Source: Spirochaetia bacterium (GTDB taxonomy: Bacteria; Spirochaetota; Spirochaetia; WTKD01; G963693115). Taken from it: a DNA stretch of 64,000 nucleotides. A model generated the notes under the pieces. The model searched no databases and had not been told where the DNA came from. It saw nothing but the letters and a program-made list of their open reading frames with translations. This document shows positions 7,165 through 26,923 of this stretch, in pieces. Location of the stretch: the NCBI GenBank assembly GCA_965226065.1, contig OZ245332.1:1316774-1380773 (forward strand), given 5' to 3'. Position numbers and translations under genes: made by a program. How positions within the stretch are numbered: the first letter of the stretch is position 1; every line of letters begins with the position of its first letter.

Positions 7165-10058
7165 TGAGAAAAGACTATACCGCGATTATTGAAGATCCAA
7201 ATGTATCAGATAAAGATAAAGCAAGGGCGTATGAGAGCAGAGCCGATATGTACTGGCAACAAGAGAAGTATGAGGAAGCGATAGAAGACTATACTGCGAT
7301 TATTGAAGATCCAAATGTATCAGATAAAGATAAAGCAAGGGCGTATGAGAGCAGAGCCGATACGTACTGGCAACAAGAGAAGTATGAGGAAGCGGTAGCA
7401 GACTATACTGTGATTATTGAAGATCCAAATGTATCAGATAAAGATAAAGCAAGGGCGTATATGGATAGAGCTGATACATACTGTCGACAAAAGAAGTATG
7501 AGGAAGCGGTAGCAGACTATGGGCAGGCGATTGAGTTATTTATCGGTGCTATAGATAAAGCATGGTCGTATTTGCGCAGAGGCGATGCGTACTTTGAGCA
7601 AGAGAAGTATGACTTAGCAATAGCAGATTATACGGAGGCGATTGGGTTATTTAGAAATCGTAAAGGGAAAGTATGGCCGTATTTGCGCAGAGGCGATGCG
7701 TACCGTGAGCAAGGGAAGCATGACTTAGCAATAGAAGACTATACCGCGATTATTGAAGATCCAAATGTATCAGATAGAGATAAAGCAAGAGCGTATGAGT
7801 ACAGAGCCGATACGTACCGTAAGCAAAAGAAGTATGAGGAAGCGATAGCAGACTATACCGCGATTATTGAAAATCCAAATGTATCAGATAAAGATAAAGC
7901 AAGGGCGTATGAGAGCAGAGCCGATACGTACCGTAAGCAAAAGAAGTATGAGGAAGCGGTAGCAGACTATGGGCAGGCGATTGAGTTATTTATCGGTGCT
8001 ATAGATAAAGCATGGCCGTATTTGTACAGAGGCGATGCGTACCGTGAGCAAGAGAAGTATGACTTAGCAATAGCAGATTATACGGAGGCGATTGGGTTAT
8101 TTAGAAATCGTAAAGATAAAGCATGGCCGTATTTGTGCAGAGGCGATGCGTACCGTGAGCAAGAGAAGTATGACTTAGCAATAGCGGATTATACGGAGGC
8201 GATTGGGTTATTTAGAAATCATAAAGATAAAGCATGGCCGTATTTGTACAGAGGCGATGCGTACCGTGAGCAAGAGAAGTATGACTTAGCAATAGCAGAT
8301 TATACGGAGGCGATTGGGTTATTTAGAAATCGTAAAGATAAAGCATGGCCGTATTTGTACAGAGGCGATGCGTACCGTGAGCAAGAGAAGTATGACTTAG
8401 CAATAGCAGATTATACGGAGGCGATTGGGTTATTTAGAAATCGTAAAGGGAAAGTATGGCCGTATTTGCGCAGAGGCGATGCGTACCGTGAGCAAGGGAA
8501 GCATGACTTAGCAATAGAAGACTATACCGCGATTATTGAAGATCCAAATGTATCAAATAAAGATAAAGCAAGGGCGTATGAGAGCAGAGCCGATACGTAC
8601 TGGCAACAAGAGAAGTATGAGGAAGCGGTAGCAGACTATACTGCGATTATTGAAGATCCAAATGTATCAGATAAAGATAAAGCAAGGGCGTATGAGAGCA
8701 GAGCCGATACGTACTGTCGACAAAAGAAGTATGAGGAAGCGGTAGCAGACTATGGGCAGGCGATTGAGTTATTTATCGGTGCTATAGATAAAGCATGGTC
8801 GTATTTACGCAGAGGCGATGCGTACTTTGAGCAAGAGAAGTATGACTTAGCGATAGCGGATTTTGACGAAGCAATAAAATTAAACCCTTATAATGCGTTA
8901 ATTCACTTCGTTAAGGGTATTTCTTTTCTTAAAAATAGAAAGCATGAGGACGCTATTACTTGTCTTCATGCTGCTTTACAGCATGGTATATTTAATGAAG
9001 ATGTAGAAATATATAGTCAAGAAATACTTGGAGAAGGTGACGACGAACTTTCTGAAAATATATTTAAAGTCTTTCAAAACGTGGTGAAGATATTAAACAG
9101 GTTAAAGGTAACAGAAGATTCTAAGGACAAGGTAGAATATCTTTCGCATACTACCAAATTATCTGTTTTTACCCAGCTTCTACCTGTACATGAGCACGAC
9201 AAAAAACTAGGTGCATTTCGCATGTACCACATTGCCTATGCTAATGACCCCACCGAAGGCACGGTGTTGTTTGACAGATTAGGCATCTCGCCCGACAAAA
9301 GAGAAAGGACGGATATTCCATATATACTGATTGCAAGCTTTTGTGGCGGTAAAGACCCACAAGCATTAGATAGCTTACCCATATGGAACATGTACGGCGA
9401 TGAAGCTAAGGGCGTAGCCATGCTCTTTAACATAAACGACATAGCTTCTCGTGAACAAGGGCATGTTACATCCCTTTCGTTTAAGGATAAGTATATTGAT
9501 GGCGAAAATAAAAGAAAAGTTGTTACAGAAGAAGAACGAGGCAAGGGGAAAACAGAACCTTTGCAGATATTATACGAAGTACACTATGTAAACAATCAAG
9601 AAGAGACAAGGGATACTCAAGAAAACAATGAAAAGAATAAGAATATAGATAAGATAATAGGCGAAATAAAAAAAGAGCTTGAAATAATAGAAAACCTAAA
9701 ACCATTACAAGCAAAGAAAATATACAACAAAATCCTAGATTTATTAAGTGGTTTGCGTTATCTCATAAAAGACAGAACCTACGCGTACGAAAACGAATAT
9801 CGCTTAGTGTGCTTTGCAAGTGAAAAAAACATATCAGAGGTATTAAAAATTGAAGAAGATGCACCAGAAGAGCGCTTTCCTCGCATCTATGTAGAAACAA
9901 AAATACTGAAAAATCTGTGCGGAGTAATGACTGCTCCTAAAGTTAAGGAAGAGCAAGCCTTAAGCATACAGTATCTTTTGTATCGGTATAAAAAGAATGA
10001 AGAGCTCTCAAAACTTGAAGAATTTCCCGTGTATAAAAGTAGAATTCCCTATCGCTAA
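7164..10058 (+). CDS. Modular TPR-array protein with C-terminal DUF2971-like domain
   Basis: 15 near-identical 37/38-aa TPR units. The C-terminal domain has AYANDPTEG, IASFC, LPIWNMYGDEAKGVAMLF and KDRTYAYENEYRLV, typical of DUF2971. Confidence 0.85.
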   Translation: MRKDYTAIIEDPNVSDKDKARAYESRADMYWQQEKYEEAIEDYTAIIEDPNVSDKDKARAYESRADTYWQQEKYEEAVADYTVIIEDPNVSDKDKARAYMDRADTYCRQKKYEEAVADYGQAIELFIGAIDKAWSYLRRGDAYFEQEKYDLAIADYTEAIGLFRNRKGKVWPYLRRGDAYREQGKHDLAIEDYTAIIEDPNVSDRDKARAYEYRADTYRKQKKYEEAIADYTAIIENPNVSDKDKARAYESRADTYRKQKKYEEAVADYGQAIELFIGAIDKAWPYLYRGDAYREQEKYDLAIADYTEAIGLFRNRKDKAWPYLCRGDAYREQEKYDLAIADYTEAIGLFRNHKDKAWPYLYRGDAYREQEKYDLAIADYTEAIGLFRNRKDKAWPYLYRGDAYREQEKYDLAIADYTEAIGLFRNRKGKVWPYLRRGDAYREQGKHDLAIEDYTAIIEDPNVSNKDKARAYESRADTYWQQEKYEEAVADYTAIIEDPNVSDKDKARAYESRADTYCRQKKYEEAVADYGQAIELFIGAIDKAWSYLRRGDAYFEQEKYDLAIADFDEAIKLNPYNALIHFVKGISFLKNRKHEDAITCLHAALQHGIFNEDVEIYSQEILGEGDDELSENIFKVFQNVVKILNRLKVTEDSKDKVEYLSHTTKLSVFTQLLPVHEHDKKLGAFRMYHIAYANDPTEGTVLFDRLGISPDKRERTDIPYILIASFCGGKDPQALDSLPIWNMYGDEAKGVAMLFNINDIASREQGHVTSLSFKDKYIDGENKRKVVTEEERGKGKTEPLQILYEVHYVNNQEETRDTQENNEKNKNIDKIIGEIKKELEIIENLKPLQAKKIYNKILDLLSGLRYLIKDRTYAYENEYRLVCFASEKNISEVLKIEEDAPEERFPRIYVETKILKNLCGVMTAPKVKEEQALSIQYLLYRYKKNEELSKLEEFPVYKSRIPYR
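7173..8858 (+). repeat. Coding tandem array of 114-bp (A) and 111-bp (B, C) units, order AAABCAABCCCCAAB
   Basis: 7x114 + 8x111 = 1686 bp, matching the span exactly. Confidence 0.95.
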
Positions 10059-10293
10059 GCTTAAGCTTTTATAGAAATTATCCCCCATGAATGGGAAACA
10101 CAGCTTGCTCCATGCATAGCTAGCTACGAGTATGCCATGATACAATACATGGTATAGATTTAGTCTTGAACACTTAACCCCTAGTGCAGAAAATTAGTGA
10201 AGGAACTTCGATTATGTTATCAAAGATGGAGATACAGTATTTCTTAAAGAGACAAAAGCACAACGGCAGTGCTGAGGAAAAGATGGGGGATTT

Positions 10294-12252
10294 ATGAATA
10301 TCACAAAAATACAAGACATATTGCATGAGCTTTTGAAGCAAGATGCGAGACTTTGGAATGAAGCTGAGCTTAATTACACGCGTCTTTTTGATTTACTAGA
10401 GAAGAATGACCCTGTGATTATAGCGCTTCTTTTAAAAGATGCTGATGTTAAAGAGAAATTCTTTATACAGGTGGAAAACGTTTTTGTTTTTAAGTCCGAT
10501 GAGTTTCGCTTTTTTGTAGAAGAAAACAAAATAGATAATTCTTACACGAGGTATAAGAATCGCATTGGCTTAACGAGTAGCAAGCGATTTATCAAAGACA
10601 CACACGATGTTGTCTTAGACTTTCCATACAAGGACTGCGTGCTAGAAGGTGGGCAGAGTAGGGACGAAGGCACGGATGCGTACTTTGCGCAAGGCAAAGA
10701 TAGAGCATACGAACAGAAGAAAGCAAAGCGGAAAGAAATATTTTACAACTCGGTATTAGCGCACGATGAGATTGACAGACTTTTTGATGCAAAAGCCTTG
10801 ACGAATTGGAAACGATATCGCAAAGACGGCATGCACGATGCTAGCGATATTGAAAGAGAGCAGGGCACGATACAAGAAAACCTGATACTCAAAGGCAATA
10901 ACCTCATAGCGTTGCACAGCCTTAAGCGACAATTTGCAGGCAAGGTGAAGTTGATATACATAGATCCGCCGTATAATACGGGCAATGACAGTTTCAATTA
11001 CAACGACAAATTTAATCATAGTACGTGGTTAGTGTTTATGAAAAACCGATTAGAAGCAGCGAGGCAGTTGCTACGAGATGATGGGGTGATATTTGTACAG
11101 TGCGATGACAACGAACAAGCGTACTTAAAGATACTGATGGACGAAGTCTTTGGACGGGAAAATTTCTTAAATGATATTATATGGAACTCTACAAAGTCGG
11201 TAACAAATACAGCAATAATATCTGTTGCACATACTCATACATTAGTTTACTTCAAGAGGAAAGATTACTATATAAAGTATAGAAATGAATTTAGATTAAA
11301 AGAAACTGGAGAGGGATTTTCTAATCCAGATAACGATCCTAGGGGAGAATGGAAGGCAGACCCTTTTCAGGTGGGAGGTTGGAGACCTAATCAACAATAC
11401 GATATAATAAATCCAAATACAAAAGTTACTTATAAACCAAATGAAGGTTGTAGCTGGAAAAATGACTTTAATAAGTTTCAAGAACTCTTAAAAGATAATA
11501 GAATTATCTTTGGGACAGATGGAAAGTCAGCTCCTCAAAGAAAAAGATTTTTATCTGAAGCATTAGAAAGAGGTAAAGTTTCTACAACAATTTGGAATGA
11601 CTTAGAAACGACCACTAACGGAACACAACATTTAAAAAGATTATTTAATAAAACTATATTTTCTAATCCCAAACCCGAAGGGCTGTTACAAAGAATTATC
11701 GAGATGGCCACCCAGCCCGGAGATATTGTTCTGGACTACCATTTGGGCAGCGGCACTACCGCAGCGGTAGCACACAAGATGGGTAGGCAATACATCGGCA
11801 TAGAACAAATGGACTACATAGAAGACATAGCGGTAGCGCGTTTGTGCAAAGTCATAGAAGGCGAACAAGGCGGAATAAGCAAGGCGATGCAGTGGAAGGG
11901 TGGAGGTTCTTTCCTCTATTGCGAGCTTGCCCCATGGAACGAGCAGGCAAAAAAGCGAATTGCTGCGTGTGAGTCTTTAGAAGCGCTAGAGACTTTTTTT
12001 AATGAAATGTACGAACGATACTTTCTAAATTACAACGTGAAAATAAAAGAGTTTAAAGACAACGTGCTAGGTGAAAAGCAGTTTAGAGCCTTAAGCCTTG
12101 AGGAACACAAACGCATTTTTTGTGCCATGCTTGATAACAACCAGATGTACGTACCTGTAAGCGAAATGGCAGATGCGAAGTATGACATTAGTGAGACAGA
12201 CCAAGAAATGACGAAAAGGTTTTATGGTGAGGAATTGGTTTTAAATTTATGA
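10294..12252 (+). CDS. mod: Type III R-M methyltransferase (Mod), copy 1
   Basis: ENLILKGNNL, IYIDPPYN, central TRD, DYHLGSGTT, GIEQMDY and GGGSF (beta-class N6-adenine MTase). Confidence 0.93.
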   Translation: MNITKIQDILHELLKQDARLWNEAELNYTRLFDLLEKNDPVIIALLLKDADVKEKFFIQVENVFVFKSDEFRFFVEENKIDNSYTRYKNRIGLTSSKRFIKDTHDVVLDFPYKDCVLEGGQSRDEGTDAYFAQGKDRAYEQKKAKRKEIFYNSVLAHDEIDRLFDAKALTNWKRYRKDGMHDASDIEREQGTIQENLILKGNNLIALHSLKRQFAGKVKLIYIDPPYNTGNDSFNYNDKFNHSTWLVFMKNRLEAARQLLRDDGVIFVQCDDNEQAYLKILMDEVFGRENFLNDIIWNSTKSVTNTAIISVAHTHTLVYFKRKDYYIKYRNEFRLKETGEGFSNPDNDPRGEWKADPFQVGGWRPNQQYDIINPNTKVTYKPNEGCSWKNDFNKFQELLKDNRIIFGTDGKSAPQRKRFLSEALERGKVSTTIWNDLETTTNGTQHLKRLFNKTIFSNPKPEGLLQRIIEMATQPGDIVLDYHLGSGTTAAVAHKMGRQYIGIEQMDYIEDIAVARLCKVIEGEQGGISKAMQWKGGGSFLYCELAPWNEQAKKRIAACESLEALETFFNEMYERYFLNYNVKIKEFKDNVLGEKQFRALSLEEHKRIFCAMLDNNQMYVPVSEMADAKYDISETDQEMTKRFYGEELVLNL

Positions 12253-14201
12253 ATATCAAAAAAATACAAGACATATTGCATGAGCTTTTGAAGCAAGATG
12301 CGAGACTTTGGAATGAAGCTGAGCTTGATTACACGCGTCTTTTTGATTTGCTAGAGAAGAATGACCCTGTGATTATAGCGCTTCTTTTAAAAGATGCTGA
12401 TGTTAAAGAGAAATTCTTTATACAGGTGGAAAACATTTTTGTTTTTAAGCCCGATGAGTTTCGCTTTTTTGTAGAAGAAAACAAAATAGATAATTCTTAC
12501 ACGAGGTATAAGAATCGCATTGGCTTAACGAGTGGCAAGCGATTTATCAAAGACACACACGATGTTGTCTTAGACTTTCCATACAAGGACTGCGTGCTAG
12601 AAGGTGGGCAGAGTAGGGACGAAGGCACGGATGCATACTTTGCGCAAGGCAAAGATAGAGCATACGAACAGAAGACAGCAAAGCGGAAAGAAATATTTTA
12701 CAACTCGGTATTAGCGCACGATGAGATTGACAGACTTTTTGATGCAAAAGCCTTGACGAATTGGAAACGATACCGCAAAGATGGCATGCACGATGCTAGC
12801 GATATTGAAAAAGATGCACAGGGCACGATAAAAGAAAACCTGATACTCAAAGGCAATAACCTCATAGCGTTGCACAGCCTTAAGCGACAATTTGCAGGCA
12901 AGGTGAAGTTGATATACATAGATCCGCCGTATAATACGGGCACAAAAGAGTTTTGTTACAATAATAAATTTCATCACAGTACGTGGTTAGTGTTTATGAA
13001 GAACCGATTAGAAGCAGCGAAGCAATTGCTTAGATTCAATGGCGTAATCTTTGTCAGCATTGATGATAAGGAACACGCGTACCTAAAGGTACTGATGGAT
13101 GAAGTATTCGGACGAGAAAATTTTGTCGGTGACTTAATTAGAAAAACAAAATCTACATCTAACATTATGAAGACAAATTTTAATTTTCAACACGAGAATA
13201 CCTTAATCTATGCAAAAGATATGGAGCATGTATATCTAAGTGGTGGTGAGAAAGATTTTCAGAATTATAGTAATCCCGATAATGATATAAATGGAGAATG
13301 GGTAGGAGCAGATCCAAGTGCAGCACGCATAACAAAGAAAGACCAATATCCTATTAAAAATCCTTATACAGGCAAAGTCGATTATCCACCTTCGGGGACA
13401 AGTTGGAAATTTCCTCAATATAGGTATGAAGAATACGTAAAAAGTGGACGGATAAAGCATAAGAAAATACATAAAGAAAATGAACGTGGCTTTATTTATA
13501 AACGATATAAGAAAGATGTAATAAAGCGAGAGTATGAGCTAAGTTCACTATTATGCACTGATACTGTTTACATGAATCAAGCAGCAACAAAAGAAAATAT
13601 CAAAATATTTGCTGATAAAACATTTGACTTTGCAAAGCCTGAAATATTTCTTAAAGTAGTAATTGAATCTTGTACCCAACCCGGCGATATAGTCTTAGAC
13701 TATCATCTTGGTTCTGGCACTACCGCAGCGGTGGCACACAAGATGGGTAGGCAATACATCGGCATAGAACAAATGGACTACATAGAAGACATAGCGGTAG
13801 CGCGTTTGCGCAAAGTCATAGAAGGCGAACAAGGCGGAATAAGCAAGGCAATGCAGTGGAAGGGTGGAGGTTCTTTCCTCTATTGCGAGCTTGCCCCATG
13901 GAACGAGCAGGCAAAAAAGCGAATTGCTGCGTGTGAGTCTTTAGAAGCGCTAGAGACTTTCTTTAATGAAATGTACGAACGATACTTTCTAAACTACAAC
14001 GTGAAAATAAAAGAGTTTAAAGACAATGTGCTAGGTGAAAAAGAATTTAGAGCCTTAAGCCTTGAGGAACACAAACGCATTTTTTGTGCCATGCTTGATA
14101 ATAACCAAATGTACGTACCTGTAAGCGAAATGGCAGATGCGAAGTATGACATTAGTGAGACGGACCAAGAAATGACGAAAAGGTTTTATGGTAAGGAATA
14201 A
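12249..14201 (+). CDS. mod: Type III R-M methyltransferase (Mod), copy 2 with a different TRD
   Basis: Same motifs as copy 1; near-identical flanks and a strongly diverged central region; ATGA overlap with copy 1. Confidence 0.93.
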   Translation: MNIKKIQDILHELLKQDARLWNEAELDYTRLFDLLEKNDPVIIALLLKDADVKEKFFIQVENIFVFKPDEFRFFVEENKIDNSYTRYKNRIGLTSGKRFIKDTHDVVLDFPYKDCVLEGGQSRDEGTDAYFAQGKDRAYEQKTAKRKEIFYNSVLAHDEIDRLFDAKALTNWKRYRKDGMHDASDIEKDAQGTIKENLILKGNNLIALHSLKRQFAGKVKLIYIDPPYNTGTKEFCYNNKFHHSTWLVFMKNRLEAAKQLLRFNGVIFVSIDDKEHAYLKVLMDEVFGRENFVGDLIRKTKSTSNIMKTNFNFQHENTLIYAKDMEHVYLSGGEKDFQNYSNPDNDINGEWVGADPSAARITKKDQYPIKNPYTGKVDYPPSGTSWKFPQYRYEEYVKSGRIKHKKIHKENERGFIYKRYKKDVIKREYELSSLLCTDTVYMNQAATKENIKIFADKTFDFAKPEIFLKVVIESCTQPGDIVLDYHLGSGTTAAVAHKMGRQYIGIEQMDYIEDIAVARLRKVIEGEQGGISKAMQWKGGGSFLYCELAPWNEQAKKRIAACESLEALETFFNEMYERYFLNYNVKIKEFKDNVLGEKEFRALSLEEHKRIFCAMLDNNQMYVPVSEMADAKYDISETDQEMTKRFYGKE

Positions 14202-17214: not shown

Positions 17215-17492
17215 ACTTTATCTTGCGTAGGAGCATGTTTTTTTAGATTTATAACAGACGCTTGCCGACATAAAAGCCGATCTTGACTACCGCCTTGACA
17301 CAAAAGATAAGCAAAGCGTTTTATACATAAAACCGTACACTTGTAATCCATATATACATAAACACATTATGCTTTTCCACTAAGAAACTCTAGAGAATGT
17401 TTGCATGAATATTTGGTATATAAAGTTAAGATACATAATCGCATGTATTTATCTAAAACACGCTTTCCATACACACGGTACAATAAAAACTA

Positions 17493-17651
17493 ATGAGCCT
17501 CACATGCGAAATACTACAAGCATTACTAGCATGTAATAGCGCCTACCTTACCCAAGATGGTGACTTAAATACGACCAAACTTTACAAGCTAGCACAAGAA
17601 TGCAATCGCAATTTGCTGGAATTGTTATGGGCAGAAAAAATTATTGGATAA
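17493..17651 (+). pseudogene. 5' remnant of a third type III mod gene (52 aa)
   Basis: MSLTCEILQALLACNSAYLTQDGDLNTTKLYKLAQECNRNLLELL aligns with the N-terminus of Mod copies 1/2 (DILHELLKQDARLWNEAELNYTRLFDLLEKNDPVIIALL). Not in the ORF track. Confidence 0.7.
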
Positions 17652-17670
17652 AGAGAGTTTGATTTTTTTT

Positions 17671-18654
17671 ATGAATAAACCTAGTAAAGAAACTAAATTT
17701 AAAACGGTTATTGAGAAAAATACATTCTATTTTTATAACAGGATGTTTGAAGAAAAATATGAAGGATATTTAAATTCTCTAAAAGAAACTTTAGTGATTC
17801 TAAAATATAAAATAGAGACCGATGGATTAAGCAAAGAATTATTTGAAAATCTACTTAGGGAAAAAGAACATGGTTTGAGAGCGTTATTAGCATTAACCGG
17901 TCTTTCTAATGAAACATTAAAAAGGCTAACAACCATAATTCGCATTAAAAATGATAATGAACTAGATAAATTGGTTTATAAAGATAAATGGTATAAAGAT
18001 GAAGATATAGAAAACTTAAAAGAATGGAGCGATTCTAAGATTGATAAGTTAATAAAATCTAATAAATATTTTAGGAAAGGCATTATCAATATATTTTTTG
18101 AAGGTTCAACCGTACCTTTTTTAGCTGAAACCATGCCTTTGTTTGAGTTAAAGAAACTAAGTATTTCTAAATTAATATTTGAAATACCTGAAATGATAGA
18201 TACTCTTATAAGGTATAAAGAAAAAGGCAGTTATTCTAGTAAAAAAGAAAATAACCCAGAAATATTGTTAGAAAGTTTACTTGATAATTTACATATTACT
18301 TTTGAAAAGGGTGATTTAAATGAACTTATAAGTAATTTTCCTGAAAGCAAAAGAACGATGGATTTTATTATCCCCAGTAAACAAAATCCACTTATTATTA
18401 TAGAAAGCTCTTTCTTAGCAACTACTTCTTCTGGGCAAGGTGATAAATCAAAAACGGAAATTTCAATTGATAGTCTTATAAAAGCATACTACCCAAACGC
18501 AAAATTCATTGGCTTTGTCGATGGAGTTGGTTGGTATGTTCGGAAAGAAGATTTACGAAGAATGGTTTCTGCTTATGAAGATGTATTTACATTTCATGCA
18601 GAAGAATTAAAAAGATTTAAGAAATTGCTTATTGAGGTTTTTTCTGGAAAATAA
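17671..18654 (+). CDS. Type II restriction endonuclease, DpnII-family-like PD-(D/E)xK
   Basis: MDFIIP...IIIESSFLATTSSGQGDK and FIGFVDGVGW; adjacent to an MTase. ATG at 17671 (ORF track uses TTG 17644). Confidence 0.7.
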   Translation: MNKPSKETKFKTVIEKNTFYFYNRMFEEKYEGYLNSLKETLVILKYKIETDGLSKELFENLLREKEHGLRALLALTGLSNETLKRLTTIIRIKNDNELDKLVYKDKWYKDEDIENLKEWSDSKIDKLIKSNKYFRKGIINIFFEGSTVPFLAETMPLFELKKLSISKLIFEIPEMIDTLIRYKEKGSYSSKKENNPEILLESLLDNLHITFEKGDLNELISNFPESKRTMDFIIPSKQNPLIIIESSFLATTSSGQGDKSKTEISIDSLIKAYYPNAKFIGFVDGVGWYVRKEDLRRMVSAYEDVFTFHAEELKRFKKLLIEVFSGK

Positions 18655-18659
18655 TTTTT

Positions 18660-19589
18660 ATGTTAGAAAGTTATTTGAACAAAATTATTCAAGGGGACTG
18701 TTTACAATTATTAAAAGGCATTCCAAATAATTCTATAGATATTACATTTGCAGACCCACCTTTTAATTTAAAGAAGAAATATAATGGATATAAAGATAGT
18801 TTAGAATTTATAGAATATATTAATTGGTGTGAAGAATGGATAAAAGAAATGATTAGAATAACCAAACCTACGGGTTCTATCTTTTTACATAATATACCTA
18901 AATGGTTAACTTTTTATGTTGGTATACTGAACAAATACGCTTATTTCAAGCATTGGATCGCATGGAACGCTCCGAGTTCTCCTATGGGCAAAAGTTTACA
19001 ACCAAATCATTATGGCATTTTGTTCTATACCAAAGAAAGTAACAACACAAAGATTTATGAATTGAGAATGCCACATGAAAGGGATAGAAAAACCACATTT
19101 CTAAGAAAAGATTACGGCGGCAAGAAAGGGGGATTGCATCCGTTTGGCCCTTTGCTTTCCGATGTATGGTCGGATATACATAGAATCAAACATACCAAAT
19201 ATAGAAATGCCCATCCTTGCCAACTACCAGTTCATTTATTAGAAAGGATAATATTATTGACAACAGACCAACATGATATAGTTTTAGACCCTTTTATTGG
19301 CACTGGTACAACAGCGGTAGCAGCCAAAAAGTTAAATAGAAAGTTTATTGGTTTTGACTTAGTTCAAGAATATATAAAAGTAGCTCAAGAAAATTTAGCT
19401 GCGGTACAACCAAATTCAAAGATTGATGATGTATGGGTAAGTTTCTATTTAGACGAGGTGAAAACCATAAGAGATAAAGACTGGGATATACTATCAAAAG
19501 ATTTTGAAATACCAAGTAACGTAAAAGAAATTGACTTTAAAAAGATCAAACTTAAAAGTGTTTTCCAAAACTCTAGGAAATGTTTCTAG
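18660..19589 (+). CDS. Beta-class N4/N6 DNA methyltransferase of the type II system
   Basis: IIQGDCL, FADPPFN, HPCQLP and DPFIGTGTT. Confidence 0.9.
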   Translation: MLESYLNKIIQGDCLQLLKGIPNNSIDITFADPPFNLKKKYNGYKDSLEFIEYINWCEEWIKEMIRITKPTGSIFLHNIPKWLTFYVGILNKYAYFKHWIAWNAPSSPMGKSLQPNHYGILFYTKESNNTKIYELRMPHERDRKTTFLRKDYGGKKGGLHPFGPLLSDVWSDIHRIKHTKYRNAHPCQLPVHLLERIILLTTDQHDIVLDPFIGTGTTAVAAKKLNRKFIGFDLVQEYIKVAQENLAAVQPNSKIDDVWVSFYLDEVKTIRDKDWDILSKDFEIPSNVKEIDFKKIKLKSVFQNSRKCF

Positions 19590-19629
19590 AAACTCTTAGT
19601 ATGTCCGACATGAATCTTATCTTTTTGCC

Positions 19630-19740
19630 ATGCTTGATAACAACCAAATGTACGTGCCTGTAATCGAGATTACAGATACGAACTATAATATAAAGAAAGA
19701 AGACCAAGCGATGACGAAAGAGTTTCATGGGGGTAAATAA
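19630..19740 (+). pseudogene. 3' remnant of a third type III mod gene (36 aa)
   Basis: MLDNNQMYVPVIEITDTNYNIKKEDQAMTKEFHGGK* versus the Mod C-terminus MLDNNQMYVPVSEMADAKYDISETDQEMTKRFYGKE*; DNA similarity is obvious. Confidence 0.9.
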
Positions 19741-19862: not shown

Positions 19863-21161
19863 ATGATAATTATGAGTGAAGAAATACCTTTTATACCATA
19901 TGAAGAAGTTCTAAAAAGGTTAGAGAACACAAACGATGAGAATAATTTATTATTAGGCAATGGTTTTAATACTAGCTTAGGAGTAGGTACGAGCTATGAA
20001 GATATTTTTGAAAAGATGAAAGAAGAGTATATAGGATATAAAAAATTAGAAGAAAAATTCAAAGAGAAAAAACAAGATATTGAAGAATTAATAGGAGTAT
20101 TAACTGAAAGTATTTCTGATAATAAAGAATTTCTTTCTTCATATATAAATAACAAAGTCAAATTAGACTTTATGAAAGCAGCAAATATTATTATACAAAG
20201 CAAAATTAAGAATATATATAATAACAAAAATGAAGGAATATACATTTTGTTTAGTAAATTTATGAATTATTTCACTCTTAACTATGACCCATTTTTATAC
20301 TTATTATTGATGAAGTTTAAATTACCTCTAATTGAAACTATAAAAGAAAATAATTCACAGATGAATACATTAGGATTTATAGAAACTATAAATAGTCAGT
20401 ATGCTTCTTTGACAGAAAATCAACAAAAGTTATGCGAAATTATAAAAAAAGCACGAGATGAGGGTAAAATAACAGTTAGTGTAAATGAAAGAACTGCTGA
20501 CGTTTCACTAAAAAATACTACTAAGACAAAGTTCCTAAGTGCTATGAAAGATTTTCTTAAGAATAATGACTTTCCTTATAAAAACAAAGATATTGATAAA
20601 GTTATCAATCATATTTTGGTAGAAGAACAAAATGAGAAAGAACAAAAACAACTAAGAATAATAGATGGCTTTATATCTAATAAAGAAAAAGAATGTGTAT
20701 ATCGTAGTTTAGAGAGTCAAAATGTGTTCTTTTTACATGGTGCATTTCATATAAAAATAGCAAAAGATAAAACATATAAAATAACACAGACATCAGAAAA
20801 AGCTTTGTATACAAAAATTGAAGAAGCTATTAATAAAGAAGAAAAAATTATTTGTGTTTTTAAAGATAACAACAAACTAGATGAAATTAATAAGAATGAC
20901 TATTTGAAGACAGGATATAACTATTTGAAGACAGGATATGAAAAGCTTTCTACACTTCGAGGTTCTCTTGTGATTATAGGTTGTTCTCTATCTGAAAACG
21001 ATGAACATATTTTTAAGCAAATTGAAGCGAGTGCTATAGATACTATATACATATCAAGCATGGCTGATAAAGAGAAACAGGATCTTATAAGACAAGATTA
21101 TGAGAAGGCAAAAAAATACTTTACAAAAGAAGTAGTTCTTTTTGCTCCAATGAGTATTTAA
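19863..21161 (+). CDS. DUF4917-like SIR2-fold protein
   Basis: LLLGNGF, FTLNYD, FLHGAFH and IIGCSLSENDEHI; contains a 21-bp in-frame duplication at 20900-20939 (YLKTGYN/YLKTGYE). Confidence 0.75.
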   Translation: MIIMSEEIPFIPYEEVLKRLENTNDENNLLLGNGFNTSLGVGTSYEDIFEKMKEEYIGYKKLEEKFKEKKQDIEELIGVLTESISDNKEFLSSYINNKVKLDFMKAANIIIQSKIKNIYNNKNEGIYILFSKFMNYFTLNYDPFLYLLLMKFKLPLIETIKENNSQMNTLGFIETINSQYASLTENQQKLCEIIKKARDEGKITVSVNERTADVSLKNTTKTKFLSAMKDFLKNNDFPYKNKDIDKVINHILVEEQNEKEQKQLRIIDGFISNKEKECVYRSLESQNVFFLHGAFHIKIAKDKTYKITQTSEKALYTKIEEAINKEEKIICVFKDNNKLDEINKNDYLKTGYNYLKTGYEKLSTLRGSLVIIGCSLSENDEHIFKQIEASAIDTIYISSMADKEKQDLIRQDYEKAKKYFTKEVVLFAPMSI

Positions 21162-21193: not shown

Positions 21194-23886
21194 ATGAAAG
21201 AATACAGCATACCCATAATCAATGTTGCCGAACAGGCATGGGAATATGGCATTAACAAAGTCGAAATTCCTGCATATATTACAAGCAATTTGAAGCATGA
21301 TTTCTACGAGTGGCAAAGTGAGGCATAGTAAAATTTCTCACACAGCAACGCATCAAAGAAAAAGAGAATTCACATGCACCGCATCTTATGTTTACGATGG
21401 CAACAGGTTCGGGTAAAACGCTCATCATGGCAGCTACCATGTTGTATTATTACAAGCAAGGTTACAGGCACTTTTTGTTTTTTGTAAATCGAAACAATAT
21501 TGTAGCTAAAACTGAAAATAATTTTATTAATGTAGAGCATCCGAAATATCTTTTTACCGAAAAAATTGTCATCAATGATTCAACAATTGCTATGACACAA
21601 GTAGAGACTTTTAGCGATGCTCCACAAGGTATAGAAATAAAATTTACGAGTATTCAAAAACTCTACAATGATATTCACATTGAAAAAGAAAACCTTACAA
21701 CATTAAATGATTTACACAATAAAGACATTATCATGCTCGCCGATGAAGCTCATCACTTAAATACTGATACGAAAGCTGGAGCATCAGAACTGTTTTTAGA
21801 AGAGATACACGAAAGAACAAGCGCAACAGAAGTAGAAAGAAAAGGCTGGGAACACACGGTTATAGATCTTATTTTACATAAGAACAACACAGACAAGCGC
21901 AATAAAAATGTGTTGCTTGAATTTACTGCAACCATCCCTAATACTGAAAGCGTTGCTAAAAAATATCAAGATAAAATAATATACAAGTTTGGATTAAAAG
22001 ATTTCTTAGCTAAGGGATACACAAAAGAAATTAATCTTATTTCTTCTACCCTTGATAAAAAAGAAAGAGTTCTGCAAGCGTTGCTTTTTCAATGGTATCG
22101 ACACAAAATAGCGTTGAAATATAACATTGCCAATTTCAAACCCGTGATACTTTTTAGAAGTAAAACCATTGCTGAGTCGCAAGAGGATTACAAAGACTTC
22201 TTACAATGGATAGATGATCTTTCACGCAATGATTTTAATTTTCTTGACACTATTGCAAATAAAATTTATGAAGCGCAGCAACCAACACTTTTTGAAATGG
22301 GAAAATCGCGTACTAAAAAGGTCTTAGAGTTTGTTAAGAACGAAAACATTCGTATTGTAGACATAATAAATTGGATACAAGACAGCTATCAGGAAAGAAA
22401 CACTATTATTACGAATTCGAAAAACAATAAAACAAAGAAAGAAAAAACAGACGCTACTACAGAAACATTGCTTAATAATTTGGAAGATGTTAATAATCAC
22501 ATACGAGCAATTTTTACCGTAGAGAGACTTACCGAAGGTTGGGATGTATTGAATCTCTTTGATATTGTGCGACTGTACAAGGGGCAAAATGCAGGAGGCG
22601 GTACGAAAAAAACACCAGAGGCGACTATCAAAGAGAAACAACTTATAGGGCGTGGTGTGCGCTATTTTCCCTTTTCGCACGATGAGACAGTAAAGAATAA
22701 AAGAAAGTTTGATAGCAACCTCGACCATGAGTTACGAGTATTAGAAGAACTATATTATTACACCCATGATGAAAATTCACGCTATATTTCTCATTTGAAG
22801 GCAGAGCTAAAAAAAGACGGGTATATAACAGACGATAAAATCGTACAGACCTTTGCGCTTAAAGAGAAATTTAAGAATAGCTTGTATTATGAAACAACGA
22901 AACTATGGTATAACACACAAGTAGATAATCCTAATAGAAAAAAGAAACCATTAGATGAAATATTAAAAAATATGTCCATCACGTACGCATTAACAGGTTT
23001 TGAATTGCATGAAGAAAAAGGGATTGGGGATGACAAAGATAAAGAAACACATATAAATGGAAGTCCATCAAAAACTATACCAGTACCATGCAAAGATATT
23101 GAAAGACATATTTTCTTAAAGGCGGTGCATATCAAAGCAAAGCAAGAAAGATCTTTCTTTCAGTTTGAACAGCTAGAACAAGAATTAGATATTCATAGTA
23201 TTGATGAATTGCAAACGAATATATTAGCGGATAGTGAAATTCACTTTATTGTAGAGAAAGAAATGTCTTATGACAAGGTACCGAATAGAGAAAAATTAGA
23301 GGCAGTAAAACAGCTTTTAGATATGTTTTCTACAGAATGTAAAAAATATAGTATTCCAAAAATTGGTAGTGAATTTAAGGCAGGTAGTTTTTCACAGTTT
23401 TTTTCCACGCCTAAAACAAAAATCATAAACGAAAACCATAGAGATGATGCCATCGCAGAGCATAACTGGTATGTATTAAATAGCTTTGTTGGTACAAGCG
23501 AAGAAAAAGAGCTTGTTAATTTTATTAAAAACAGCGTTGGAAATTTACAAGAAAAGTATCAGGATATATATTTTCTAAAGAACGAAGAAATATATAAAAT
23601 ATACGACTTTGAACAAGGCAGAGGTTTTCAACCCGATTTTCTTTTGTTTTTGAAAGATAAAGAACAATTAGGCTTGTATTATCAAATATTTATTGAACCG
23701 AAAGGAGGGCATTTGTTGGGACATGATGAGTGGAAAGAAAATTTCTTAAAACGAATAGCAGCAGACTATGGAGATGCTCGCATATTACGTGCAGAGCATT
23801 TTTCCTACAAGCTCATAGGATTACCCTTTTTTAGCACTGGCGATAATGCGAATTTTGAACAAGAGTATAAGAAACTTTATTCGTAA
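21194..23886 (+). pseudogene. res: Type III R-M restriction subunit (Res) with a frameshift at about 21325
   Basis: Frame from 21194 gives ...EIPAYITSNLKHDFYEWQSEA*; the other frame continues IVKFL...MATGSGKT, DEAHH, EGWD, QLIGRGVR, PDF...EPKG. One base is missing (gca-ata-gta read as gca-tag-ta). Confidence 0.85.
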
Positions 23887-23947
23887 AGACTATTAAGATA
23901 CCTACTTTTGTGTACAGAAACGCTGTACGCATATGATAGTATAGAGC
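23871..23947 (+). repeat. 77-bp direct repeat, copy 1 (res 3' end plus downstream leader)
   Basis: Matches 26847-26923 at 75 of 77 positions. Confidence 0.95.
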
Positions 23948-23985: not shown

Positions 23986-25047
23986 ATGGCAAAAAAAATT
24001 GAAGCAATTGATTTATTTTGTGGGATAGGTGGACTTACCTATGGATTACAACAAGCTAATATTAAAGTTTTGGCGGGACTAGACAATGATGCTTCTTGTA
24101 AAGAAGCCTATGAAAAAAATAATCATTGTCAATTCATTGAAGCAGATGTAACAAAATATGATTTTGAAAAGATGAAAAACATATATTCCAATGATAGTAT
24201 TAAAATTTTAGTTGGATGTGCCCCCTGTCAACTTTTCTCATCTCACGCATTTAAAATAAAAAATAAAGAAGATGATACTAGATGGAACTTATTAAACTAT
24301 TTTTTAAAGGCACTTAGAATCGTTGAACCTCACGTTATTTCAATGGAAAATGTTAGAGGTATATTAAAAACTAGAGTTTTTGAAACATTTATCAAAAAAA
24401 TTGAAAATCTTGGATATAAATTTGATTATAAAGTAGTTTATTGTCCTGATTATGGCATACCTCAAAATAGAAGTAGGCTTGTTTTGCTCGGTTCAAAATT
24501 GGGAGAAATACAGATTATAGATAAAAAGTACAAACGAGAAAATTATGTAACTGTAGGTGATGTTATTAGGAATCTACCAAAACTAGAATTGGGAAAAATC
24601 GATAAAAAAGATACTATGCATAGATGTAAGAATTTATCACCATTAAATATAAAGAGAATACAACAATCCTTACCTCGCGGTACATGGAAAGACTGGGATA
24701 GAGATTTATTACCAAATTGTTATAAAAAGAGAAGTGGACAAACCTATACTTCTGTGTATGGAAGAATGAGTTGGGATACTGTTGCTCCAACAATTACTAC
24801 ACAATTTTTTAATTATGGTTCTGGTCGATTTGGTCATCCAGAACAAAATAGAGGGCTTTCACTTCGAGAGGGAGCGTTAATACAAACATTTCCTATAGAT
24901 TATTATTTTGGAGAAATTATTTCAATGACAACAATTGGTAGACATATAGGTAATGCTGTACCACCAAAGTTAGGAGCCGTTATAGGTGAAATTATTCAAA
25001 ACCATATAAAATATCACTATGGAAAAGGAAAAACATACTCAAACTGA
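23986..25047 (+). CDS. C5-cytosine DNA methyltransferase
   Basis: DLFCGIGG, GCAPCQ, MENV, QNRSR, LSLREGALIQTFP and IGNAVPP; ATG at 23986 after gagagga. Confidence 0.95.
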   Translation: MAKKIEAIDLFCGIGGLTYGLQQANIKVLAGLDNDASCKEAYEKNNHCQFIEADVTKYDFEKMKNIYSNDSIKILVGCAPCQLFSSHAFKIKNKEDDTRWNLLNYFLKALRIVEPHVISMENVRGILKTRVFETFIKKIENLGYKFDYKVVYCPDYGIPQNRSRLVLLGSKLGEIQIIDKKYKRENYVTVGDVIRNLPKLELGKIDKKDTMHRCKNLSPLNIKRIQQSLPRGTWKDWDRDLLPNCYKKRSGQTYTSVYGRMSWDTVAPTITTQFFNYGSGRFGHPEQNRGLSLREGALIQTFPIDYYFGEIISMTTIGRHIGNAVPPKLGAVIGEIIQNHIKYHYGKGKTYSN

Positions 25048-26668
25048 CTTCCATTTTAATATCTCACTCAGTGTGTTAAATCATCTAGGAAGAAATCTAT
25101 ATAGAAATTTTATAACTGTTCTTGGAGAAGCTATATCAAATTCATGGGATGCCGATGCAGAAAATGTTTGGATTGATATTGATAGAGACAAGCAGTCTTT
25201 TTCTATTAAAGATGATGGTATAGGAATGTCAAATGATGATTTTCAGAATAAATTTTTAAAGATAGGGTACTCAAAAAGAAAAGATGGTACTCAATCAACT
25301 AAAGAAGGCCGTCCTTTTATCGGACGAAAAGGTATAGGGAAATTAGCTCTTCTATCTTGTTCACAAAAAATAAGTATTGTTTCAAAACAAGAAGATGCTT
25401 ATACAGGTGGTGTTATTGACAATACAGAGTTAGATAAAGCAATTGAAGATGACTTAGAGTCACGCGAATATTCGCTTGGAAAAATAGACCAAGAAACATA
25501 CCAAAAACAAATACATAGCAGCAGTGGAACTATTATTTCTTTTGAAAATTTAAATGATGGAATAAGAAATACTTTAGAGACTTTGGAAAAAACTATTGCA
25601 TTGTATTTTAGATTCTCTTTATTAGATGAGAATTTTAAAATTCATTTTAATGGAAAAGAAATTACTGTAGACAACTTAGAAGACCTTACATCAAAAACAG
25701 AATTTTTATGGATACTCAATAAGCACAAAGACCCTCTTATGGATAAATTTTCTCAAAAAAAAGAAGTAAAAAAAATGAATCCAACTACTTCTATAAAAGG
25801 GTTTATTGCATCAGTAGAAAAACCTAGCGATTTAACAATATACGGTATGAAAGAACGTGTTAGCATTGATTTATTTGTCAATGGTAGATTAAGAGAACGA
25901 GATATATTAAAACATGTTCCTAAATCTCGCATTGTAGAAAATTATCTTTATGGGCAAATTCATTTTGATGAATTAGAAAATCAGGATAAAGATATTTTTG
26001 CCACCAATCGCGAAGGTATTCTTGCTGATGATCCAAAATACCAAGAATTTTTAGAACAATTTAAGAAAGAGTTTCTAAATCCTATTATAGATCAATGGGA
26101 TAGATTTAGATTGAAACACCGCCAAGATGGAGATCCAGAGAATAAGAGTATGTCGAAAGAAGAAAGGAAGGCTGACGAACTACTTAATATAGAATCTAAA
26201 GAATATAAAGGTGAATTTGTTAATCATAACATAGAAGAATTGCGTAATGATGGTAGATATAATATTGCATCTTATACACAATGCTTTTTAGCTGAAAATT
26301 TATTAAGAAAATTTATAGAAAAACATAATTTGTTAGAAAATATTCCTAAGAAGATACAAGAAAATATTAAAAAATATAAAAGGATTGAAGATGAAAACAA
26401 ACAAAAAGGTAACATAAGTATCCCAATACGTGTTGATAATAATATGTCCTATTTATCAATGGATGAATTAGCATATATTATAGATCAAAAAAATGATATG
26501 GCAAAATCTTCCCTCAATTGGGATGCTAAAAAGTATAAACCTATACGAGATGCTATTGCTCATACTGCATGGTTAACTAAAGAGGCAAAAGACGAATTCA
26601 AAACTATTTATGACAATATCAAAGGTAGAGTAGACAAATTATCGGAAGAGAACAACAACAAGAAATAA
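25019..26668 (+). CDS. GHKL/MORC-like ATPase with a putative C-terminal Swt1-like HEPN domain
   Basis: EAISNSWDA, DDGIGM and GRKGIGKLA (GHKL); C-terminal ENLLRKFI...YLSMDEL..II...RDAIAH (R-x4-H). Confidence 0.8.
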   Translation: MEKEKHTQTDFHFNISLSVLNHLGRNLYRNFITVLGEAISNSWDADAENVWIDIDRDKQSFSIKDDGIGMSNDDFQNKFLKIGYSKRKDGTQSTKEGRPFIGRKGIGKLALLSCSQKISIVSKQEDAYTGGVIDNTELDKAIEDDLESREYSLGKIDQETYQKQIHSSSGTIISFENLNDGIRNTLETLEKTIALYFRFSLLDENFKIHFNGKEITVDNLEDLTSKTEFLWILNKHKDPLMDKFSQKKEVKKMNPTTSIKGFIASVEKPSDLTIYGMKERVSIDLFVNGRLRERDILKHVPKSRIVENYLYGQIHFDELENQDKDIFATNREGILADDPKYQEFLEQFKKEFLNPIIDQWDRFRLKHRQDGDPENKSMSKEERKADELLNIESKEYKGEFVNHNIEELRNDGRYNIASYTQCFLAENLLRKFIEKHNLLENIPKKIQENIKKYKRIEDENKQKGNISIPIRVDNNMSYLSMDELAYIIDQKNDMAKSSLNWDAKKYKPIRDAIAHTAWLTKEAKDEFKTIYDNIKGRVDKLSEENNNKK

Positions 26669-26670
26669 AC

Positions 26671-26862
26671 ATGTCACAGCATAATAAAATACATCTCTAC
26701 CTACAATCAATGTGCGCGGAAAAGGCATTTGAATATGGCACGGCATTAGCAAAACTGAAAATAATTTTCTTAACGCAGAGCATCCGAAATATTTTTTTAC
26801 CGAAAAAATTGTCATCAATGATGCAACGCTTGCCATCACACCAGTAGAAACTTTATTCGTAA
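26671..26862 (+). pseudogene. Collapsed remnant of a second res gene
   Basis: Three fused pieces: AEKAFEYG (res AEQAWEYG), AKTENNFLNAEHPKYFFTEKIVINDATLAITPVET (res AKTENNFINVEHPKYLFTEKIVINDSTIAMTQVET), and the last codons of res. Confidence 0.9.
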
Positions 26863-26923
26863 AGACTATTAAAACACCTACTTTTGTGTACAGAAACGCT
26901 GTACGCATATGATAGTATAGAGC
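26847..26923 (+). repeat. 77-bp direct repeat, copy 2 (leader of the sugar-binding lipoprotein gene)
   Basis: Matches 23871-23947 at offset 2976. Confidence 0.95.

Follow-up and report, generated by a model that had tools for sequence, protein, structure and literature searches.

GHKL-type ATPases encoded next to cytosine methyltransferases are an established class of putative restriction enzymes. Orlowski and Bujnicki (2008) distinguished five REBASE subfamilies of GHKL 'restriction endonucleases' (REases), including R.HgiDII, whose C-terminus was left unassigned, and R.NmeAIP, whose C-terminus was labelled 'Hypoth_Ymh' (PMC2441816). For restriction-modification (R-M) neighbourhoods with cytosine methylases and Vsr, the groups paraMORC1-5 were introduced by Iyer et al. 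(2008), who described paraMORC3 with a restriction endonuclease-fold nuclease and paraMORC4 with a TIR domain, and drew an analogy to MutL/VSR (PMC2292703). Later, Ymh was recognized as a HEPN domain that is fused to paraMORCs in R-M contexts, and an analogy to PrrC/RloC was proposed (Anantharaman et al., 2013; PMC3710099). In 2025, anti-phage protection was reported for VcSduA, in which GHKL is combined with DUF4263, and both ATPase and nuclease were needed (PMC12137116). Here we describe a unit of this kind in a 64,000-nucleotide (nt) stretch of contig OZ245332.1 from a Spirochaetia bacterium (the window; all positions refer to it unless stated otherwise). The unit, called M-GHKL in the following, lies at 23986-26668 and consists of a 5-methylcytosine (m5C) DNA methyltransferase (MTase) gene and an overlapping gene for a GHKL ATPase with a helical, HEPN-like C-terminal domain.

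GHKL-type putative REases beside m5C MTases are already known, and so are paraMORC-HEPN fusions in R-M contexts; new are the HEPN-like C-terminal family, which is distinct and unclassified, and how widely the conserved two-gene module occurs. The original prediction, made from the sequence of the stretch, had not recognized the pair as a named system. This novelty was overstated, as the N-terminal 370 aa of the protein match NF050001 and REase_II models and the class had been catalogued in 2008, with the paraMORC-HEPN fusions following in 2013. In a literature search we found no paper on a C-terminal family of the window type and none in which any GHKL-HEPN protein was tested.

The methylase-GHKL pair and its helical C-terminal domain

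Both genes are intact open reading frames (ORFs). The MTase ORF (23986-25047, + strand) encodes 353 amino acids (aa) counted from ATG, or 379 aa from an alternative upstream TTG at 23908, and the ORF of the GHKL ATPase (25019-26668, + strand, 549 aa) overlaps it by 29 nt, the two genes being translationally coupled. The parts of the unit are:

23986..25047, + strand: m5C DNA methyltransferase of the M.HgiDII-like clade (Pfam PF00145, TIGR00675, PADLOC DrmMII, catalytic motifs)
25019..26131, + strand: GHKL (Bergerat) ATPase with S5/transducer domain, aa 1 to about 371 (HATPase_c_3, NF050001, REase_II, Foldseek)
26132..26668, + strand: C-terminal all-helical HEPN-like domain, aa 372-549 (AlphaFold model, Foldseek, conserved motifs)
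26294..26308, + strand: Ex3[KR] motif E426-N-L-L-R430 (E, N and R invariant; rule from PMC3710099)
26546..26566, + strand: Rx4H motif R510-D-A-I-A-H515-T (family alignment, AlphaFold model; rule from PMC3710099)

An intact Dcm-type MTase overlapping a MORC/GHKL ATPase had been predicted, and the ORFs, Pfam matches and motifs confirm it. The MTase matched DNA_methylase (PF00145, 1.2e-60) and TIGR00675 (5e-42), its best PADLOC model was DrmMII (2e-92), and the motifs FCGIGG, PCQ, ENV, QNRSR and GNAVPP were all readable. Its identity to the MTases of sister systems (HgiDII-type, N. gonorrhoeae, Listeria) was 43-51% and to the MTases paired with GHKL proteins of its own family 41-52%; a comparison that took in same-family, HgiDII-type, C. 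coli and TIR-type partners gave 41-51%. Since the MTase is equally close to both groups, the core of an M.HgiDII-clade methylase and a GHKL+S5 ATPase is common to these systems while the C-terminal effector has been swapped. The intact motifs, together with the frequent presence of an adjoining Vsr gene, suggest that the MTase is active and marks host DNA. The target recognition domain of the MTase, examined as a sign of which protein reads the DNA site, was well conserved across the family and hence uninformative; the same holds for avoidance of the HgiDII site GTCGAC, of which the window contains 3 copies versus 4.3 expected.

The N-terminal half of the GHKL protein matched HATPase_c_3 of Pfam (6.9e-22), and the Bergerat motifs E37xxxN41, DDGIGM, GRKGIGKL and GT171 were invariant in the family. 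When a predicted structure (AlphaFold, AF2; built on 31 homologs, mean confidence pLDDT 76.5) was compared by Foldseek, MORC2/3/4, TRAP1/Hsp90 and GyrB-43K came out on top over about 400-480 columns (E 5e-12 to 1e-8). These matches corroborate the assignment as a MORC-like GHKL ATPase. The protein has Bergerat motifs I-IV followed by the S5/transducer domain, and it is encoded in a cytosine methylase/Vsr neighbourhood, as is characteristic of MORC/paraMORC proteins. Residues 11-371 aligned to positions 1-368 of 659 of the NCBIfam model NF050001, 'BbrUII/HgiDII family restriction enzyme', with 300 bits, whereas the curated cutoff of this model is 550 bits. Two PADLOC REase_II models likewise matched the ATPase half alone (2.7e-44). 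A PADLOC run without hits would, according to the original prediction, have supported novelty; no model indeed fell on the C-terminus, but the REase_II models cover the ATPase half and DrmMII the MTase.

The C-terminal domain was predicted to be all-alpha in a dedicated AF2 model (pLDDT 83). A phmmer search with this domain against 1.84 billion representative proteins gave 158 matches, all of them with the ~550-aa architecture or fragments of it. An alignment of 76 C-termini, 36-49% identical to the window protein, contained 15 invariant columns, six of which are E55, N56 and R59 (Ex3R) and R139, H144 and T145 (Rx4H) in domain numbering; D140, the residue after the R of Rx4H, was conserved in at least 90% of the sequences. 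The C-terminal strings quoted in the original prediction are present in the sequence, ENLLR at 26294-26308 and PIRDAIAHT at 26540-26566. These motifs exceed chance because they are invariant across 76 divergent sequences.

The positions of the invariant residues were compared with the rules established for HEPN domains (PMC3710099). According to these, Rx4-6H ends helix 3 and runs into the loop before helix 4, the R is followed by a polar N, D or H, an acidic residue lies upstream, usually within Ex3[KR], and an insert is found between helices 2 and 3 of the four-helix up-and-down core. In the window protein R510-D-AIA-H515 ends the penultimate helix, predicted at 128-143 in domain numbering; the last helix (150-177) comes after a loop. 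E426-NLL-R430 lies upstream of Rx4H and fits the Ex3[KR] rule, and a conserved insert (K..GNISI.IR....SYL, residues 92-127 of the domain) separates the two motifs.

A Foldseek comparison of the C-terminal model against the PDB placed HEPN proteins at ranks 1, 2, 3 and 6 (2q00, and the HepT structures 7bxo, 6m6u and 6m6w) and AbiV at rank 10, three HEPN families in all, but the HEPN matches were non-significant (E 0.64-3, probability <=0.57, TM score 0.33-0.48). The first-ranking 2q00 is listed as a HEPN-T/Parep structure (PMC3710099). Pfam searches at E <= 10 gave no domain in the C-terminus, neither alone nor across the 76 members, and no HEPN or other model of NCBIfam or PADLOC matched this region. 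The probability of a relation to Ymh (PF09509) in hhalign was 0.4%, with a Ymh alignment that is shallow (4 sequences). When the C-terminal alignment was run as a profile against PDB sequences, chance matches alone came up (NF-YC and DEPTOR, E ~0.2), and a BFVD fold search with the domain returned nothing. The HEPN claim of the original prediction is thus backed by an invariant R-x4-H placed as the HEPN rules demand and by the nature of the best structural matches, whereas no HEPN profile matched and even the best Foldseek hit (E 0.64) was not significant. We regard the HEPN fold of the C-terminal domain as likely, short of demonstrated, and its membership in the HEPN superfamily as plausible, statistically unestablished. 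The domain is a distinct, unclassified HEPN-like family specific to ~550-aa proteins.

Distribution of the family and relation to sister systems

The GHKL-HEPN-like family is large: with clustering at 90% identity, more than 4,700 clusters reached E <= 1e-3, and the 120 best of those listed were all full length and 53-57% identical. In a scan of one genome per species 399 loci were found; 80 of these were retrieved and form the basis of all neighbourhood counts given here. They span Planctomycetota, Bacteroidota, the Patescibacteria group, Chloroflexota, Nitrospirota, Acidobacteriota, Proteobacteria and Actinobacteria and include one archaeal metagenome-assembled genome (MAG). A C5-MTase homolog adjoined the GHKL gene in 77 of the 80 loci, in about 70 of them immediately upstream and overlapping, and a pair of the same family resides on a 20-kb conjugative Paracoccus plasmid. 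The M-GHKL pair is an autonomous, widespread and horizontally mobile module.

Apart from the MTase, only Vsr recurred as a neighbour; in 29/80 loci the gene for this mismatch endonuclease follows the GHKL gene directly. All-against-all clustering of the flanking ORFs of the 80 loci revealed no other recurrent neighbours beyond shadow ORFs, and PADLOC on 140 flanking genes showed mixed R-M and defence genes, no single one exceeding 5/140. A homolog of the Type III-like Res gene, which adjoins the module in the window, was its neighbour in one locus of the 80. A separate REase is therefore no conserved partner of the pair, in line with the original prediction, and the possibility that homologs always come with such an enzyme is contradicted by the 80 loci and by the Paracoccus plasmid. 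In an Omnitrophota locus (L027, 4993-9626) the MTase gene is followed by two GHKL paralogs in tandem, the first of 628 aa and the second a HEPN-like member of 548 aa.

The gene order M-GHKL-Vsr raises the question of very-short-patch repair. E. coli MutL stimulates Vsr, and the GHKL protein could be a MutL-like accessory ATPase that works with a Dcm-type methylase and Vsr in such repair or in epigenetic housekeeping, its C-terminus being a constitutive dimerization domain. Besides the 29 loci with Vsr, the MutL/VSR analogy of Iyer et al. (PMC2292703) speaks for this function. Most loci, however, the window included, are devoid of Vsr, the corresponding position of the sister proteins is taken by toxic effectors (nuclease, HEPN, TIR), and invariant residues of catalytic type are unexpected in a pure dimerization domain. 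As the patchy, cross-phylum and plasmid-borne spread is moreover typical of selfish or defence modules, we consider a MutL-like role rather improbable.

One of the closest known systems is the BbrUII/HgiDII type (NF050001; R.HgiDII, R.BbrUII). Like in the window, the MTase gene comes first and is overlapped by the second gene, the GHKL+S5 N-terminus is homologous (~34% identity over ~380 aa), and the MTases belong to the same clade (43-48% identity). In contrast to the 549-aa window protein with its helical EN...RDxxxH domain, BbrUII/HgiDII proteins have ~670 aa and a PD-(D/E)xK-like block. The window protein is no full-length member; its 300 bits lie below the cutoff, while true members reach 650-800 bits. 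Among the latter are proteins from Burkholderia glumae (650 bits) and Halobaculum (800 bits), whose C-terminus contains a PD-(D/E)xK-type block (HPWLLDP...D...(D/E)LK) without counterpart in the window family. In a tblastn search of plasmid records we found proteins that share the N-terminal ~370 aa alone (25-34% identity), each encoded just downstream of a 'DNA cytosine methyltransferase'.

This resemblance underlies the main rival explanation, namely that the window protein is a conventional DNA-cleaving GHKL restriction enzyme of the R.HgiDII/R.BbrUII kind within a Type II-like R-M system, with the helical domain acting as a new DNase or as a nuclease recruiter. The N-terminal 370 aa fall into REase families of NCBIfam and PADLOC, operon layout and MTase clade agree with bona fide BbrUII/HgiDII members, and in surveys of REBASE the C-termini of several GHKL 'REases' are left unassigned (PMC2441816). 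Furthermore, joint pre-methylation with M.BbrUII and M.BbrUIII raised B. breve transformation by a factor of more than 1000 (PMC5829577). Against DNA cleavage speak the missing HgiDII block (HPWLLDP...D...ELK), the lack of any detectable DNase-type domain or motif in the C-terminus (Pfam at E <= 10, PDB profile search) and the invariant residues, which fit the signature of RNase-type HEPN domains. To our knowledge, no HEPN domain cuts DNA. Overall, DNA cleavage by the window protein appears unlikely, yet it deserves to be considered seriously.

The R.NmeAIP-type GHKL-Ymh (HEPN) proteins resemble the window family in combining the ATPase with a C-terminal helical Rx4H domain, in operons of the order M - GHKL-HEPN - Vsr, and an RNase tied to an R-M module has been proposed for them, too (PMC3710099, PMC2441816). 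An example is the operon of N. gonorrhoeae (L086), in which an m5C MTase gene is followed by a GHKL gene continuing into Ymh (PF09509, 2.9e-25) and then by Vsr; PADLOC assigned PD-Lambda-3_B and Aga_HEPN to the gonococcal GHKL-Ymh gene. Unlike these proteins, the window protein has no match to PF09509 or TIGR02391 and no hhalign signal, and the N-terminal identity is ~28%, so that it represents a separate or a very divergent family. At the gonococcal locus (L086, 3071-6036) the methylase gene is frameshifted and the GHKL gene truncated, and Vsr alone appears intact.

Another effector is found in the paraMORC4-TIR type (R.LweSORF291P class). In Listeria (L087) the operon has the same M->GHKL-X organization and an MTase 50% identical to that of the window, but the effector is an SpbK-like TIR domain, as the GHKL C-terminus matches the TIR protein SpbK with 1.6e-21. 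VcSduA, Shedu type I-D and paraMORC3 also share with the window protein a GHKL+S5 regulator fused to a C-terminal effector. There the effector is a PD-(D/E)xK DNase, and VcSduA is described as a stand-alone protein, whereas the window protein has a HEPN-like domain and a conserved m5C MTase partner; neither Pfam nor alignment detected a DUF4263 (Shedu) domain or motif in it. The exchange of DNase, RNase and NADase effectors at one position is the hallmark of a defence protein that combines a sensor with an effector.

The relation to class 2 DISARM is given by DrmMII, the best PADLOC model of the window MTase, and by three of the 80 loci (L025, L032, L044), in which a GHKL-HEPN-like gene directly follows DrmA-DrmB-DrmC. 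DrmA, DrmB and DrmC are absent from the window, however, and in 77/80 loci the module stands alone with its MTase. At these three loci (for example L044, 1281-9665) the GHKL-HEPN-like gene occupies the slot usually held by DrmMII of class 2 DISARM.

A methylation-controlled RNase effector as a tentative reading

We read M-GHKL, with slightly less than even confidence, as an R-M-like module with a methylation-controlled HEPN-like RNase effector. The m5C methyltransferase would mark the host's own DNA, and the paraMORC-type GHKL+S5 ATPase would be the 'restriction' component, which probably dimerizes and clamps DNA like MutL and MORC. ATP-dependent engagement of unmethylated target DNA, coming from an incoming phage or plasmid or from the host chromosome after loss of the methylase, would switch on the C-terminal effector, in which the invariant Ex3R and RDxxxH residues are expected to form a metal-independent RNase site. 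The activated effector would then cleave RNA and growth would stop, which corresponds to abortive-infection or addiction logic and not to DNA restriction. RNA as substrate and methylation as self-signal are both assumptions of this model, and the DNA site might be read by the MTase itself, by analogy with Type III systems.

The conservation of the pair, the lack of a recurrent nuclease gene other than Vsr, the MORC-like N-terminus, the motifs that obey the HEPN rules, the HEPN proteins among the top Foldseek hits, the effector swapping in sister operons and the anti-phage activity of the relative VcSduA support a methylation-controlled RNase effector. Methylation-guarded RNA cleavage, as suggested in the original prediction, is a reasonable idea that the HEPN and TIR effectors of sister systems reinforce, although the mechanism is one that we infer.

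Several points weigh against this reading, beginning with the HEPN assignment itself, for which the structural matches were non-significant and the searches of Pfam, NCBIfam, PADLOC and Ymh empty as described above. The computed data show neither an RNA substrate nor methylation control of the GHKL protein, and no sequence-reading domain is evident in the latter. In the three loci with DrmA-DrmB-DrmC no C5-MTase was encoded within 8 kb of the GHKL gene, and in two loci (L035, L043; MAGs, possible sequencing errors) a broken MTase gene accompanied an intact GHKL gene. Strict dependence on a neighbouring MTase thus does not hold throughout the family. In this lineage the local copy may also be under relaxed constraint. 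When the GHKL gene (25019-26668) was compared with that of L081, the corresponding locus of a strain 98.4% identical in DNA (10001-11641), the ratio of nonsynonymous to synonymous differences per site (pN/pS) was 1.75 (33.5 nonsynonymous versus 4.5 synonymous). At 222 family-conserved columns the window protein deviated 23 times and that of L081 25 times, compared to 0-10 deviations in 29 other members. The reverse of the broken-MTase state, an intact MTase with a broken GHKL gene, was likewise seen in two loci (MAGs, possible sequencing errors).

The pN/pS of the GHKL gene and the deviations at conserved columns raise the possibility that, irrespective of what the family does in other genomes, the copy in the window is decaying and no longer functional; such decay would be compatible with the other readings. 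For comparison, the pN/pS of the MTase gene versus L081 was 0.59, and the neighbouring genes for Res, a periplasmic binding protein and aspartyl-tRNA synthetase reached 0.10, 0.06 and 0.11, respectively. However, both ORFs are intact in the window and in L081, all indels are in-frame, and the signature residues of the ATPase, the MTase and the HEPN-type domain are kept. Moreover, a high pN/pS is likewise expected from diversifying selection in defence genes. The local GHKL copy thus seems to be under relaxed constraint or under diversifying selection, and we consider its being a dead remnant improbable.

A more elaborate version combines these elements. In it, m5C would protect self DNA, and the MORC-like ATPase, perhaps guided by the MTase, would clamp unmethylated DNA and thereby trigger a dimeric RNase of the unclassified HEPN family; the response to foreign DNA would be cleavage of RNA instead of DNA. 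The module in the window would be one representative of a broader class made up of an M.HgiDII-clade methylase, a GHKL sensor and a swappable effector (DNase, HEPN or TIR). This version is possible, though we would sooner doubt than accept it in all its parts.

If a methylation-controlled effector were true, a DNA-methylation self-mark would control an RNase, or an NADase in sister families, and the boundary between R-M and abortive infection would be blurred. The module would also offer a simple bacterial model of how a MORC-type ATPase turns the sensing of DNA or of epigenetic marks into an output. This family, with its thousands of clusters in many phyla and on plasmids, is annotated only as 'ATP-binding protein', and its C-terminal domain is without a Pfam model; in so large and poorly annotated a family one experimental characterization would annotate many genes. 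It would also change the interpretation of R-M predictions in which proteins of this kind are called 'Type II REase'.

Local context, the Res gene and a proposed recombination

The unit is framed by a direct repeat, and both repeat copies are linked to a Res gene. The features concerned are:

23870..23947, strand not assigned: left copy of a 78-nt direct repeat (3' end of Res plus intergenic DNA; repeat comparison, depth)
26846..26923, strand not assigned: right copy of this repeat, 97% identical to the left one (repeat comparison, depth)
26716..26854, + strand: remnant of a second Res gene with an internal deletion (matches to 5' pieces of Res)
21194..23886, + strand: Type III-like Res helicase-nuclease, outside the conserved module (PADLOC REase_III, Pfam ResIII)

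Between the repeats we found the MTase gene, the GHKL gene and a deleted Res remnant of ~210 nt (26716-26923, including the right repeat copy), and no ORF for Vsr, HNH or REase inside the repeat-bounded unit. The statement of the original prediction that no endonuclease gene lies there holds within the unit, with the caveat that the Type III-like Res gene is located directly upstream. The G+C content of M-GHKL is 29-31%, compared to ~38-41% in the flanks. A promoter and terminator scan of the unit gave scores no better than shuffled sequence, and a look for sequencing runs designated as RNA yielded none.

Res (21194-23886) matched PADLOC REase_III (1.4e-97) and Pfam ResIII and has a PD...EPK nuclease motif near its C-terminus. 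In the window it shows an apparent frameshift at 21325/6, leading to a stop after 44 codons. Contigs from runs of the same sample carry an extra T after 21325 (X1 at 127/127 depth, X3 at 88/88), and with this one extra T the relative L081 has an intact Res of 897 aa. As same-sample contigs and relatives contain the missing T, the frameshift is probably an assembly error and the gene intact, coding for 897 aa.

Short-read contigs break at the 78-nt repeat, the depth of which is twofold. The Res remnant (26716-26854) consists of 5' pieces that match 21227-21251 and 21503-21611 and are joined to the repeat, which copies the 3' end of Res. The resulting order, Res-[repeat]-M-GHKL-Res'-[repeat], would be expected if a resident Res gene had undergone one crossover with a circular or tandem intermediate that carried M-GHKL and a piece of Res; L081 has the same arrangement of Res and M-GHKL. 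Given that Res adjoins the module in one of 80 loci, its adjacency looks like history rather than function. A general role of Res as the nuclease partner of the module was rejected on the same count.

The location next to Res nevertheless invites comparison with the anticodon nucleases PrrC and RloC. In these enzymes, as envisaged for the window protein, an NTPase carries a HEPN RNase at its C-terminus; they are genetically linked to R-M genes and follow suicide-type logic. They differ in having an ABC-type ATPase that guards a Type I (or other) enzyme, whereas the window protein is of the GHKL type and its partner is only a methylase. A PrrC-like protein could guard the neighbouring Type III enzyme (Mod 12249-14201, Res 21194-23886) and fire when a phage inhibits it. 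An intact Res directly adjacent, with a Res remnant on the other side, is in line with this, as is the PrrC/RloC analogy for paraMORC-HEPN fusions (PMC3710099). The conserved partner is the m5C MTase and not Res, however, and the recombination footprint explains why Res is adjacent, so that a guard of the Type III enzyme seems very improbable.

Several further observations concern the region upstream. The interval between Mod and Res holds genes for a lyase and a transporter as well as a Type II R-M pair. The latter is contained in 17267-19618 (ORFs 17644-18654 and 18660-19589) and comprises an REase, whose C-terminus gave weak DpnII and BanI-like matches, together with an N4/N6 MTase (PF01555, 3e-51). 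L081 lacks the entire segment 17267-19618, which is therefore a strain-specific insertion. Directly before Res, at 19863-21161, a DUF4917 gene was found (PADLOC PDC-S21, 1.5e-36), and in L081 the calls of the two genes overlap by 4 nt. Its centre (~20026-20841) gave no blastn alignment to the ~98%-identical L081, which suggests allelic replacement or a hypervariable region. Two Mod-like genes of Type III lie in tandem, and their 3' ends (11710-12235 and 13674-14199) are 95% identical over 526 bp; a third, 80% identical copy of the Mod 3' end is situated at 19619-19730, just upstream of the DUF4917 gene. This layout suggests that duplicated gene ends have recombined repeatedly or that mod alleles have been shuffled.

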